Of a DNA stretch of 64,000 nt, positions 33,523-39,294 are shown one piece after another. Made by a program: the position numbers and the translations under genes. Source of the DNA: Patellaria atrata CBS 101060 (Eukaryota); NCBI GenBank assembly GCA_010093705.1, contig MU006099.1, forward strand, positions 558,001 to 622,000. The letters run 5' to 3'. The notes below the pieces were generated by a model. It saw only the letters and a program-made list of their open reading frames with translations, did no database searches and was not told where the DNA came from. Each line of letters starts with the position of its first letter. The stretch's first letter is position 1.

Positions 33523-35110
33523 TGACTGTTCGCGCCTAGTGGAAACTGGGCTTGTTGATGCAGGGCGGATCACTGTGGACTTGAAAAATTGCATTGTACA
33601 CTATAGCATGGCGTTGGGATGTTATTGTGTATGCACCGTGGGATGGAGACGTCAGTGTTAGATTTGTAGAAGTGGGGTATTGGGTGGAACCTTTATGCTG
33701 TTATAGAGTCTGCGCTCTTCCGCTGCTAGTCAGAGGTATGTTTGAAGATAACAAGATCGTTCTTGGTGCGATGTCTTCCAATGGACAGATGTCAAAAGAT
33801 ATTCTATCTCCCCAAATAGACCACAGCCGGTAATTTCATCATGAAATATATAGAAATAGTCATTAATCCCATTAACAATCCTGGGACGAAATGCTCCAAC
33901 ATACGAAGAACATCCATAATAGGTGGGTGATCTGTGAAAATAAACACCAAAGCGTTAGCAATACGAAAAGAAAAAGTTAAAAAGAGCAGTTTGTAACGAC
34001 CTCGGAATTTAAAGATTAACAGCACTGATGCGGCTCCCTCAGAATGCCGAATTCACAATCGCAGGGGACAAATCTCTAGTTCACTATCGCTCGTCCAGAC
34101 GGCCAATATCTTCAGGAGCCTCCTTGCGGAGGTCTTTATCCCATCCCTGGCGCTGGCGAGGCTCGAACAGCGGACCATTCGAGCTAGCAGAGCGCGAGGA
34201 TCAGCATTAGGCATCAAGCCTTAGGCCAAACGCCCTTGATTATTGAGTTCTGAACTTCTTGGCACAAGCATGTAGCCCTTCGCACTCGTTTGAGCTTCAG
34301 TACGGGAGTGTAAACGGGAGCGGGAACCGCAACGGGAACGGAACGAAGCACGCCGCAAGCCGCGAGCTGAAGCTGCTTCCCGTACCGTATGAAATTCTGT
34401 ATTTCTGTGATTTGAAGCCTTATGTGATCTACGACAAATTTTCAGACAGTATTGATGGGAAAGAGAATTTCGGAGTCATACATAATTAGAATACCAATTA
34501 AGCACGGGCATTGCGTGAAATAGACCGATTAAGCTTTCAAAATGGGACAACTCGTTACGCTTTCCTTGCTGTTATTAGTCGTTGGTTTTAAAGTCTCGAA
34601 CCCATCTAGGAGAACAATCCTGACCCAAATATGGCGGCTAGAGACGCAGCTAGATCTACGATAGCGGCTGGCTTATCAGGTTGAGCTCAAGACTCACAAG
34701 GGAAATGACGAGCGTCTTTGAAAGACTGGCCTGAAGGATAGAACAACGGCGTATATGGAAGAATTGGAAGATGTTCACAATGGAAGAGGTATGAGACGGT
34801 AACGATCGAGGAAGGGAACATGATCGGTTTCAGTAGATATTCTTTCACGACGGCAGCCTATCATCTTGCCTGGAAATGGAGCGATATACGAAACCTCATT
34901 TTGTAATAGGAGCGTACCATACCAGAATAACGGCGCATTCAAGGGAATTCGAAGGAAGTATAAGTCGGTTCTACTTTTATGCTACGTAAGTACAAACACA
35001 TACGCTGATATCTGTATTTGCACTCGTTCATCGAACCTGTTGGAGAGCAAGGTTCGACAAGAAGTAGCGGCCTACCTATGGAAGGAACGCTCTATGTCAT
35101 AATAGTATAA

Positions 35111-37032
35111 CTAAACGTGGAGTTGGGCTGTGACGGTGGACGTTATGTAACCCTTGTACTTTTCCAGCTTCCCGTCGACAACTCCATTCGAACCGGCGTA
35201 TCGCTCAACAATCTCCGCAGATCGGCCGATGAAAAGCTTAGCGTCCAGTAGGTCATCGATATCGTCCCATATCGGTTTCTAATTACTATAGGTCAGAAGA
35301 AGAAGTGAATCTTCATGAAGTAACCTACAAAGAACTCTGTCTTCTTGATACGTTCTATGAGATCGTTTTTACGACCCTCAATTTTCATAACGTGGACTGT
35401 CTCACGGGACAGAATACGAATGTGTTCATGAGCTTCCTGACGGGAGACGCCATGGGCGACAAGTTTCATGATAATATTCTCGGTTGCCATAAAAGGAAGC
35501 TCCTGTTCAAGCTGAGATTTGATCATTGCTGGAAAAACAACGAGACCATTGGTGACGTCATCCAGCAATGTTAGAATGGAATCGGACAAGAGGAACATCT
35601 CAGGTATGTCAATTCGGCGAATTGCGCTGTCGTCCAGAGTCCTCTCGAGCCATTGACTAGAAAATGTTTCCGAGAAGTTAACGTTGATGTTGCTTAATTT
35701 TCGACCAAGACTGCAGACGCGTTCGGACCGCATCGGGTTCATCTTGTAACTCATGGCCGAGCTCCCAGTCTACTCAATTAGCTCATTGCCGACAGGACCT
35801 GGGAACTATTATTTACCTGTGTGGCTTCATGAGGCTCATCGAGCACTTTGTCGTGTGCTAGATGGCGAATGTCCTAATGACGATTATTCAAGAAAGGGTT
35901 AGAATTCGAAGTAGAGCATCTTACGGTAGCAATACGAATAGCGCTGGCACCAAATGCTGAGAGGGCATTGGCGATACGCAAATCGACTTTCCGTGTGTAT
36001 GTCTGAGTGGAGATATCATAGCAAGATGCAAACCCTGCTTTCTCGCAGAGGATCTTGTTGAGTTGATCAATCTTAGAAGTATCACCGTGAAAGATCTCCA
36101 TGAATGACGCCTATGTTCAGTGGTAAGTAAGGTTGCTGTTAGTGATATGGGAATACTACCTGAGTTCCCGTCGTGCCTTGGGCACCGCGAAATTTGAGGT
36201 TATTTCGGACATATTCAATATCTTCTAGATCGAGAACTAAGTCCTGCATCCACTGCGCAGCGCGACGCCCTACGGTGATAGGCTGAGCTGCTTGGTAATG
36301 CCTTTGCGTAAGATTTAGCAACGTCTCGCCTTACAAATACAAGAGCAATATAATCATATGGACATACGTGAATCCTAGGGTAGGTAAGTCCTTATACTTG
36401 AGTGCAAACTGGGACAGGTTATGAATGACCTTCGCCAATTTTGGAAGGACCAGATCAAGTGCGTTACGAAGAAAGATGAGATCGGCATTATCAGTCACCT
36501 ATGAGAGACATGTAAGATCTATGCAATCGGAATATTGCATACATTGACAGGAGAAATGAGAAGACATACTAAATATGTCTCGTTAGCTACGTTCAAGTGA
36601 AATGAGATAATTAAACTTGATATAACAAACCGTAACACGAGGTAGCCCCAACATGAATGATTCCAGCAGCATCTGGGGCATCTTTTTCGAGCGCAAATAC
36701 ATGGCTCATGACATCGTGACGGCGAATGCGCTCCTCAGCAGCAATCACTTGAAAGGCCTCATCGCTCACCACGAGGTGTGTCCGAATTGCCTCAATCGCT
36801 TTGTCAGTGATCTGGGCGAGCCCCAGTTGCTTTTCTGCTTCGGCGAGCCAGAGCCAGAGTTTGCGCCAGGTAGTAGCTCTCTCTCGGGCAGAGAAGATTT
36901 TTCTCATTTCAGGACCTGATCAACTCAGCGGTCGATCTGAGCAACCAACTACGACCAAAGCTCCAAAACATCACAATACTTACTTGCATAACGAGATGCC
37001 AACGGCGTCTCGTACTCGTCGTATTTTGGCAT
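35111..37032 (-). CDS. ADE13: Adenylosuccinate lyase family protein (divergent Ade13-like), multi-exon, with a stwintron at 36499-36631
   Basis: [49 protein letters not shown] and [15 protein letters not shown]. Introns include 36916-36983, 36302-36368 and 36111-36159. Confidence 0.9.
36499..36631 (-). other. Spliceosomal twin intron (stwintron), [D1,2]/[A2,3] dual type
   Basis: Minus strand reads TAC G GTTTGT..GCTAAC..TTTA-G-TATGT..TCTTAC..CATAG GTG ACT. Two introns share G36569. Confidence 0.8.
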
Positions 37033-37558
37033 GATTTTTGATAATACTGAATTAACTGTAGATGTTTCCAAGAAACCTAAGAACAATAACAAACTTTGAA
37101 AGACCTCAACCATAAGTGGGATCCTCGGTAATACTTTCCCCACCAGCCACTAACAGTTAGATCGAAAACTTAAACTGAACGGTATTTGAACAACCAGATA
37201 ACGGAGATGTCAGGCGGTAGTTATCTGACTGTCAGTTTACTATCATTACCAATATGCACAAACCAGAATTGACGCTGTACTGCTCATTCATACGCTCGAT
37301 TCTTGGCCGACTTTAAGATTCCGTGCTCGACAAGCGAACTTGATTTAACTATGTTATAGATATGATTTGATATGCTATCTCCTCCTTTCAGTAAATAAAT
37401 ACCTTGTACCGGCGCATGCGGGGAGAGTCGGTACCATTTCATCTTCAGCTGAGTGTTTGAAGTAACTGAAGGGCTGGCAGATCTCGTTGTGAGGACATAC
37501 ATTCGTGGAGTCGTACGCGAGACGGGATGATTCGCGCTACCATCGCGGCCAATATGCT

Positions 37559-39294
37559 CTACTCTGTATCCCCTCTTTCTTCTTTATCATTCAGGTGTGC
37601 CTTCAAGCCCCCCTTCCCAATCTTCATGGCTCTCTCCAGCTCCAGCTCCTCTTCTCTTAACCTACCTTTCCCGAACTCGAGATCTCTACGTTGTCGTCTT
37701 TTCTCTTCCTGCACTCTTCTCTCCCGCTCTGCAAGCGCCTTCTCTCTCCTATCCCGGTCCTTCCGCCTTTCACTCGCATCTTCGTCGTCCTGTCCATTAT
37801 CATGTGCAGCAGGCGGCGGTGGAAGGGTCGAAATGTAGGCATCGATGAGAGAGTCGCGAATGGCAGCTGGCAGAGTAATGTAGCGTAAATCTGTGAGGAC
37901 TGCAGATGGGAGATTCGAGGATGAAGACGCCCGATTGAGGTCTTTGAGAGGAATCGATTTCAACAACGTCGAGAGGTCAGATTTCGCGGCACTTTGCGGT
38001 AATTTTAGACGGGTAATGTGATCTCGATAGATTTTCTCGAGCTCTTTATCGCTAAGTCTTGAGTTGCGTAGCTCAGACTCCTTTCTATGCTTACGTTGAA
38101 ACTCTTTCCAGAATAACCTCGGGCTTGCGTGAGCATGAAGGAAAGCGATATAAGGTATACGGGGATCCTGTTGAGCTTGGGAGGCTTTTTGAGCCTTCAG
38201 GGTCTCGATACGAGACCTTGACCATATATCCCAGGCGGCCTTGCGAGCTTTGGTCGTGGGTAGTACAGTATAGCGTATGTCGTCTACTATACTTCCCGAT
38301 GAAAGTAGCGTCTCCCAGGGTGTAAAAGGAGAGATGTGGTGATCGTCCAGAAGTTCATGAAATAGTGCAATAGAGTCCTCTTCAGATAACGGTAAACCTT
38401 CTGCACCTTCTTCCCAGTCCCCTTCCCCATATTCGCCCGGGTCTAGTCCGTATTCCTCGCCCATGGCTGCGAGTTGGTATGCTATATCATCTTCGTTGAA
38501 CTCAACCGGCAGATTCGAATCAGGCTCCTCTGTGCGATGGCGCTTTGGTAGGTTTCCTTGCTCGTCATCTTCTCCTTCTTCCTCTGTGACCTCTACTTCT
38601 TCGTATTCTGAATCAAGATCTGCTTCGTCTGCTTGCTCTGCAGGCGTAATCGAGCATCTTCGAGCATCTTTTCCCTCGACAGCGACAGTCTCTCGATCAT
38701 TTTGGTTTTCGCTAGATTCACCTCTTTCTCTCTGCTCCCTGCGCTCACGTTCCATCCGGTCAAATTCCACTACGCCTTTCATAACATCTTCTGGGAATTT
38801 CCAAAAACTTTCTTTGGTCTCCGTATTATGAACAAACCTCCTCCCCAGTTTGGTTTTGACCAGAGTCCAGGGCGCGCAATTTGGAATAGCGTATCTGTGT
38901 TTGGGTCTGTCCTCGGGATGATGGCTTCTACGGCCTTGGTACCCATTTCCACCTTTAAAGCTTCCTCTTCCTCTAAAATCAGCTTGAGTTTGGCCCTGGG
39001 TTGAGTTGGTAAACGTGTGTGGGTAGGATGGCCCTGAGTATGGGTTTGAGAGATTAGTCGTAATATGAATTTGCGCAGCTGGAAAGGGAGTCGGAGTTCC
39101 TAGGGTAGGGCGGGTATATGTCGAAATTTTTGTTTCAGCGTTGTAATAATATGAATGCCCTAGTTAATGTCAATACGAGAATAGAACAGTTTGATGTCAA
39201 ATTTACCGGTTGGAGCCTTATGTTCTGTCCATCCTGGAGGAAGAGAGGGCAGAATTGGCGGCGGAGTCGCAGTCTTATGAGTGGATTTCAGCAT
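37559..39294 (-). CDS. WW + FF domain protein (Urn1/Dre4/TCERG1-like splicing-associated); intron 39160-39206
   Basis: LPPGWTEHKAPTG|HSYYYN..STYTRP WW domain, second WW-like segment (PWTLVKTK..SFWKFP) and FF repeats (FHELLDDHHISPFTPWE). Confidence 0.88.

Follow-up and report, generated by a model that had tools for sequence, protein, structure and literature searches.

A candidate twin intron with two possible orders of removal in the adenylosuccinate lyase gene of Patellaria atrata

The adenylosuccinate lyase gene and its second intervening sequence

We analysed a 64,000-nucleotide (nt) stretch of the genome of Patellaria atrata CBS 101060 (assembly GCA_010093705.1, contig MU006099.1, positions 558,001 to 622,000), hereafter the window, and concentrated on the gene for adenylosuccinate lyase (ADSL), whose second intervening sequence appears to be made of two overlapping introns. 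All coordinates are positions in the window, and the gene and its parts lie on the reverse strand. The coding region (35111..37032) comprises eight exons in our model and encodes 485 residues, as against 494 in the deposited model. The exon translations match ADSL_C. The deposited protein, P0001, is a 100% match to the locus, and its source lists it as the adenylosuccinate lyase from Patellaria atrata CBS 101060. In Pfam, P0001 scored 74.4 bits for Lyase_1 (PF00206, cut-off 27) and 74.8 bits for ADSL_C (PF10397, cut-off 32.7). Its residues 1-487 matched the solved ADSL structure 5vkw_A with an E-value of 1.7e-166, and 11 solved chains were matched altogether. On the strength of these domain matches and of the full-length similarity to a solved structure, the product is identified as adenylosuccinate lyase, a member of the fumarase/aspartase superfamily.

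The gene has seven intervening sequences. Ordinary GT-AG introns, 47-68 nt in size, account for six of them; the second, of 133 nt (36631-36499), separates the Tyr codon of exon 2 from the Val codon of exon 3. Exon 2 (36632..36915) closes with the codons for G-A-T-S-C-Y, and exon 3 (36368..36498) opens with those for V-T-D-N-A-D-L. At the end of exon 2, the codon TAC (36634-36632) is followed by G36631 and then by GTTTGT from 36630 onwards; at the start of exon 3, G36498 opens GTG ACT GAT (V-T-D). Removal of a single 132-nt GT-AG intron (36630-36499) leaves one surplus G, and the translation then reads ...SCYGD followed by a stop.

Two complete introns can be recognised within this sequence. 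Intron A (36630-36569, 62 nt) has the donor GTTTGT, the branch motif GCTAAC at 36587-36582 and the end TTTAG. Intron B (36569-36499, 71 nt) has the donor GTATGT, the branch motif TCTTAC at 36517-36512 and the end CATAG. The distance from the branch A to the intron end is 14 nt in both, and their sizes fit those of the six ordinary introns of the gene. The two introns overlap by one base, G36569, which is the final base of A and the initial base of B. Two further Gs flank the pair, G36631 upstream of the 5'-most donor and G36498 downstream of the 3'-most acceptor. The six ordinary introns served as our reference for splice signals; a window-wide census of introns bridging open reading frames was dropped for this purpose, its 579 candidates being mostly spurious.

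We enumerated all GT...AG removals, and all pairs of successive removals, that give the Tyr|Val junction. The exhaustive enumeration returned no one-step GT-AG solution and four formal two-step solutions, two of which were dismissed, each requiring an intron of 15 nt. The other two were the removal of A first, with a 71-nt GTATGT...CATAG intron as the second step, and the removal of B first, with a 62-nt GTTTGT...TTTAG intron as the second step. Both orders lead to the same product, SCY|VTDN. A preliminary description of the window, made from its letters, had already given the coordinates and motifs of A and B, the shared G36569, the two flanking Gs and the stop produced by the 132-nt intron, and our analysis reproduced all of these. 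Its two orders of removal with one product are likewise present as described, and they are the only canonical way to the junction found in most ADSL proteins (see below). Both the architecture and its uniqueness are direct observations. To put a figure on chance, the interior of the 132 nt was shuffled 20,000 times with dinucleotides preserved and with the outer donor and acceptor fixed, and an overlapping pair was counted as valid if both introns had at least 45 nt and each carried a branch-like motif. Such pairs arose in 440 of the 20,000 shuffles when the inner donor was defined loosely and in 161 when it had to fit GTRNGT, that is, in 0.8-2.2%.

We read the second intervening sequence as an alternatively spliceable [D1,2]/[A2,3] stwintron, a nested twin intron, and put the probability of this reading at roughly 0.7. 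A and B would be complete U2 introns that share one G and are flanked on each side by another. Because one base is common to both, the unaltered primary transcript would not allow the excision of both. On the [D1,2] route, the complete internal intron A would leave first, so that G36631 meets TATGT and a new GTATGT donor is formed, to be used with the branch site and acceptor of B. The external intron reconstituted in this way is canonical and restores the frame, and it has no single canonical alternative. On the [A2,3] route, B would leave first; G36498 directly follows CATAG, and the removal of B joins TTTA to G36498, giving a new TTTAG acceptor for use with the donor and branch site of A. 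The flanking Gs would exchange roles between the routes. With [D1,2], G36631 opens the external intron and G36498 opens the Val codon; with [A2,3], it is G36631 that opens the Val codon, as an exonic base, and G36498 that closes the external intron. In either order 133 nt would be removed and the Tyr codon joined to the Val codon, yielding the 485-residue enzyme with GATSCY-VTDNADL intact. The routes differ in order only, because the same two sets of signals serve both, and the process would amount to two consecutive U2 reactions by intron definition in which either may come first. That the spliceosome performs this two-step removal in vivo, and which order it prefers, we infer from the sequence.

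The predicted secondary structure places a hairpin of 9 base pairs at the point where the introns overlap (36561..36581; arms 36581-36573 and 36569-36561, loop TTA, -8.1 kcal/mol). The acceptor of A lies inside the predicted hairpin, in which the opening nine bases of B, donor included, pair with bases immediately upstream of that acceptor. Overall, the 133 nt were predicted to fold better than 200 of 200 shuffles (z -3.6), with the hairpin contributing part of this. As 3.1% of 25-nt windows of the pre-mRNA fold as well as the hairpin does, it is only mildly unusual. Speculatively, the removal of A would break the hairpin and free the regenerated donor, and the hairpin could in this way favour the order with A first. 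As a separate observation, the 50-nt intron 7 (35279-35328) was also predicted to fold unusually well (-12.1 kcal/mol; z -3.1 relative to mononucleotide-shuffled versions); none of the gene's other ordinary introns showed such strong folding.

The tyrosine-valine junction in other ADSL proteins

We collected 201 ADSL proteins from two database searches and inspected each at the position of the junction. In 169 of them, the residue right after Y or F is V (in rare cases I, C or L), and T/G-D-N comes next; 30 are anomalous exactly at this point, and two do not cover it. The clean group spans bacteria, yeast, chytrids and many filamentous fungi, and none of its 169 members carries any residue between Y/F and V. 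The product predicted for the stwintron is in this sense conserved. In an alignment of 18 Pezizomycotina sequences, T108, S109, C110, V121, T122, D123 and N124 (numbering of P0001) were invariant. The preliminary description had called the surrounding stretch a highly conserved active-site segment. The invariance of the motif bears out the first half of this phrase; as to the label "active-site", a literature search on a substrate-binding role of the motif's T-S residues found statements on His159 and Ser289 only.

The deposited model of the Patellaria protein departs from this pattern. P0001 differs from our 485-residue model by residues 112-120, VCLLISPVN, which stand between Tyr and Val. 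They arise from the removal of A, the retention of a 26-nt exon (36543..36568) and the removal of a 44-nt GTATGC...CATAG intron (36499..36542). The preliminary description had set out this very combination as a competing model and had stated that stwintrons of this kind are missed by gene callers. The combination is indeed in frame, and the deposited protein agrees with it letter for letter, nine extra residues included. In the two solved ADSL chains whose alignment is shown, out of the 11 matched, a gap lies exactly over the nine residues. The GC content of the 26-nt stretch is 34.6%, intron-like compared with an exon mean of 48.8%; 26-nt windows with a value as low make up 10% of exonic and 36% of intronic windows. 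The public gene model for the Patellaria ADSL appears to be wrong. The deposited 494-residue model would be a gene-caller workaround, because callers are unable to remove two overlapping introns.

The 30 anomalous proteins were then compared with one another, the state of the relatives being read from protein models rather than from the DNA of the loci. Apart from the one of Patellaria, they come from Xanthoria, Calogaya, Xanthocarpia, Flavoplaca, Caloplaca, Physcia, Ramalina, Mycoblastus, Arthroderma, Microsporum, Nannizzia, Trichophyton, Myotisia, Polytolypa, Trichoglossum, Geoglossum, Hirsutella, Purpureocillium, Cordyceps sp. and Madurella. Twelve of them have an insertion of 3 to 43 residues at the junction, 11 have the downstream part missing or frameshifted, and seven have the upstream part missing. 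The inserts vary from model to model in length or sequence, although the 6 residues of Trichophyton violaceum equal the opening of the 13 in T. benhamiae. All 23 anomalous models in which SC[YF] is retained continue with V, G, D, A or E, each of which has a G-initial codon; P0043, counted among them, may be a separate matter in which an intron follows V-T. All seven models that lose the upstream part resume exactly at V-T-D-N or I-T-D-N. The first pattern fits a donor placed by the callers one base past the Tyr/Phe codon, behind a G, and the second fits an acceptor placed directly before the Val (or Ile) codon. Taken together, the two patterns imply that donor and acceptor are out of step by one nucleotide, just like those in the window.

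To see how the anomalies are distributed, we built a FastTree phylogeny from 70 of the 201 rows, namely all 28 near-full-length anomalous rows and 42 clean ones chosen to stand for named genera and the closest unnamed relatives. The partial proteins P0009 and P0043 were left off the tree, as were 131 rows that were mostly bacterial, yeast, or redundant Sordariomycete and Leotiomycete sequences. Of the 28 anomalous rows, 27 fell into one clade of 38 rows that includes Patellaria (local support 99). The anomaly label required 7 changes on the tree, compared with a mean of 22 when labels were shuffled, and none of 500 shuffles gave a number as low. The members of the clade are Patellaria (Dothideomycetes), Xanthoria, Physcia and Mycoblastus (Lecanoromycetes) with their kin, Nannizzia and Myotisia (Onygenales) with other dermatophytes, Trichoglossum (Geoglossomycetes), and Hirsutella, Purpureocillium and Ophiocordyceps, which we take to belong to the Ophiocordycipitaceae. 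Eleven rows of the clade are clean. Five come from annotated genomes (Thermoascus, Lecanora helva and three Ophiocordyceps); P0008, P0025 and P0027 are long uninterrupted open reading frames on genomic contigs, their organisms evidently being without the intron; and P0004, P0019 and P0125 come from short contigs.

The clustering of the anomalies in one clade suggests a conserved problem intron. Going further, we give even odds to the claim that the ADSL twin intron is old in one lineage of Pezizomycotina, has stayed at the Tyr|Val junction of an invariant motif, has been lost in some of its members and is systematically mis-annotated, this lineage comprising Patellaria, many Lecanoromycetes, dermatophytes and other Onygenales, Geoglossomycetes and Ophiocordycipitaceae. 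As a Val codon always begins with G, any [D1,2] form at this site is automatically an [A2,3] form as well. Within the protein set, P0003 (276 residues, clean junction) was considered as a partly spliced transcript and rejected as such, its cluster lying on genomic contigs of up to 133 kb; its organism is simply without introns 1-4.

The tree also held observations of another kind. Xylogone sp. PMI_703 has two ADSL proteins, P0158 and P0216, which fall into different clades. The ADSL tree departs from the class tree, in that Onygenales, Sordariomycetes and Eurotiales occur both in the clade of Patellaria and in another. The FastTree topology suggests that Pezizomycotina ADSL falls into two lineages, through an old duplication or a transfer. 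A scan of metagenomes returned at least 80 ADSL loci, and among the matches listed 79 were uninterrupted, bacterial-type loci at 46-54% identity, with no close fungal ADSL locus among them. The only one of the listed matches above 54% was locus L001, which at 62% identity covers residues 4-494 in 1504 nt and is an essentially intronless, eukaryote-like ADSL.

Purpureocillium offers a closer view of the junction. A 1575-nt Logan contig of Purpureocillium lilacinum encodes a 485-residue protein, P0125, with a clean junction, and leaves no room for introns. P0125 is identical at 476 of 476 positions to the genome-derived model P0126, which is nine residues short at the junction. An insert of 21 residues (three models of 506 residues and one fusion of 791) or a frameshift (P0128) is present there in other P. 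lilacinum models from genomes. In P. takamizusanense, ADSL is deposited as two proteins, P0207 and P0210, of 113 residues (ending S-C-F-G-T) and 361 residues, and the split is at the junction. We read the short P. lilacinum contig as a probable transcript. If it is one, the intervening sequence is removed exactly in this species, even though no pipeline has modelled it. Among the P. lilacinum models, P0128 and P0203 read the same stretch in different frames with colinear peptides, which imply that, immediately behind the Phe codon, strains or assemblies differ in length by 4 nt.

Alternative explanations

The alternative that survives best is the deposited model itself, in which A is removed, 36568-36543 are kept as a micro-exon and the 44-nt intron is removed, so that VCLLISPVN would stand in a 494-residue enzyme. 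Several points weigh against the stwintron. The micro-exon form uses canonical GT-AG sites only, is in frame and free of stops, and is the public annotation. Its 44-nt intron shares the branch motif and acceptor of B, is just 3 nt under the shortest ordinary intron of the gene, and has 30 nt from donor to branch A, which is not prohibitive given that other introns may use 21-26 nt. Moreover, the donor GTTTGT of A and the branch motif TCTTAC of B are not the best consensus forms (TCTTAC-type motifs are the sole branch candidates in other introns of this gene), and the P. lilacinum contig is taken as a transcript from its length only. Against the micro-exon stands the comparison with homologues: 0 of the 169 clean proteins have residues between Y/F and V, and the other 11 models of the insertion type carry differing inserts, a pattern of annotation workarounds rather than of real exons. 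The insert sits in the gap of the two solved chains with a displayed alignment, its 26 nt have an intron-like GC content, and as part of the main product it would put a hydrophobic 9-mer inside an invariant motif. The GTATGC donor would also have to compete with the consensus GTATGT for one branch site, and the resulting intron would be the shortest in the gene. As the main product we consider the micro-exon form unlikely; as a minor isoform, made when GTATGC outcompetes GTATGT, it is possible.

A second alternative gives the same mature product by another path. The 133 nt could be removed in one step by non-canonical splicing, with GG-AG or GT-GG ends, in which case the internal donor and acceptor would be coincidental. 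We regard this as very improbable. To our knowledge, U2 introns of the GG or GG-terminal kind are extremely rare, which counts against such a step. The sequence moreover contains a complete internal acceptor, a donor and two well-placed branch motifs, a combination expected in only about 1-2% of shuffles, and the experimentally studied cases of this architecture described in the available text of PMC5587772 are spliced in two steps. The point in favour of one-step removal comes from P. lilacinum, whose 21-residue insert corresponds to 63 nt, starts with Gly and ends with Gln. If these 63 nt were the whole intervening sequence, two introns would not fit into it, and non-canonical splicing in a single step would be indicated. 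The insert would, however, be equally well explained if the callers had removed a 3' intron and kept an in-frame 5' intron; judging from the peptides, CAA plus the next G would form the AG of that intron.

The last alternative, and the least probable, is that an error of sequencing or assembly has added the extra G to an ordinary 132-nt intron, which would give exactly this picture, or that the gene is a decaying pseudogene. The preliminary description had named such an error as a way in which the stwintron could fail, and it finds no support in the contigs of two DNA runs, X1 and X2 (word depth 320 and 459), which span 35100-37100 with 0 differences and 0 gaps, although these runs may be the assembly's own data; an intron of 132 nt would have twice the length of any other in this gene and would leave the internal twin architecture unexplained, the same one-nucleotide problem is implied in many independently sequenced relatives (the G-initial next residue in 23 of 23), and the remaining exons are intact, with 82% identity to the closest relative.

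Neighbouring features, significance and known systems

Directly upstream of the ADSL gene, at 37562-39163 on the same strand, lies an open frame of 534 residues with WW and FF domains. Its Pfam score for FF is 27.9 bits (cut-off 22), with WW and TCERG1-WW under their cut-offs. Splicing and transcription factors of the Prp40/TCERG1 type have this set of domains. As the frame runs open at its 5' end, the gene probably continues upstream. At the other end of the ADSL gene, a single 181-nt contig from X3, a small run labelled as another organism, matches 35105-35278 without a difference. The match ends exactly at the first base of exon 8 and leaves 7 letters unmatched, which would fit a spliced transcript; it lies far from the stwintron.

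The immediate consequence of our analysis is the correction of a public protein, since the deposited enzyme has nine apparently spurious residues within an invariant motif. The problem extends beyond one species: the same junction is broken in 30 of the 201 ADSL models, which represent four fungal classes or more, and the error is inherited in alignments and structure prediction and touches drug-target work on purine synthesis in dermatophytes. Gene callers and RNA-seq aligners that accept only canonical introns cannot represent overlapping ones. The candidate would also add a housekeeping, single-domain and easily assayed gene to the short list of [D1,2]/[A2,3] stwintrons. If the clade-wide reading is true, many independent lineages would be at hand in which to look at the outcomes of internal-intron loss, namely canonical introns one nucleotide apart, and these would form a natural, kingdom-wide series for testing the proposed one-nucleotide mechanism of intron shift; the junction hairpin might then set the order of the two reactions.

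Stepwise removal is known from recursive splicing at ratchet points in Drosophila and vertebrates, in which the first step is followed by the re-creation of a 5' splice site. The ADSL case would resemble it in both respects. The difference is that no splice-site motif is interrupted in recursive splicing, whereas in ADSL one unit splits the donor or acceptor of the other. The same distinction between stwintrons and recursive splicing is drawn in the available text of PMC5587772.

Among stwintrons, the closest counterpart is that of a DHA1 antiporter gene in Trichoderma reesei, which consists of a 66-nt and an 88-nt intron with one G in common and a further G on either side; both intermediates were cloned and the mature cDNA sequenced, and the preferred route varied by data set (Fekete et al. 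2017; available text of PMC5587772). The two cases share the one-G overlap, the possibility that either intron goes first, a single mRNA, a wrong automated annotation and similar intron sizes. They differ in that the T. reesei gene encodes a transporter and the Patellaria gene a housekeeping purine enzyme, in fungal class, and in codon context, the ADSL stwintron standing between two codons on its [D1,2] route; and the intermediates were cloned in T. reesei, whereas the ADSL case is known from its sequence. The same source describes an alternatively spliced [D1,2]/[A2,3] stwintron with a one-G overlap in the alternative oxidase gene (aox) of Helminthosporium solani, which is a different gene. 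That this kind of stwintron is established in filamentous ascomycetes, as the preliminary description had held, is borne out by these two examples.

The phylogenetic spread suggested for ADSL has its nearest parallel in lipS and bioDA, whose ancient [D1,2] stwintrons are conserved across classes of Pezizomycotina (Flipphi et al. 2017; PMC5639578, available text). Common to these and to what the ADSL anomalies suggest are a fixed position in a well-conserved gene, an occurrence in several classes and losses in some lineages. For lipS and bioDA, however, DNA loci were compared and spliced forms verified, whereas the spread in ADSL is deduced from broken protein models. A third group, the symmetrical "sister" stwintrons that proliferate in Hypoxylaceae, bears terminal inverted repeats of 45-55 nt (available text of PMC8469720 and PMC9024468). 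The ADSL stwintron shares with them the [D1,2] arrangement and some internal symmetry, which in ADSL is confined to the 9-base-pair junction hairpin. Within the window it is not of this proliferating type: long terminal inverted repeats were absent, the fold consisting of three local hairpins with no end-to-end pairing, and no second copy of the stwintron was found in the 64 kb, where the best other match was 12 nt long.

We found no report of a stwintron in ADSL in the literature searched, which did not extend to the supplement of PMC9024468 and two early stwintron papers, and the six supplement files of PMC12403724, in their available part, contain no mention of adenylosuccinate, adenylosuccinase or ade13. 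Set beside these systems, the alternatively spliceable [D1,2]/[A2,3] stwintron is a known kind; what is new is the gene in which the candidate lies, ADSL, and a junction that is mis-annotated across a whole lineage.

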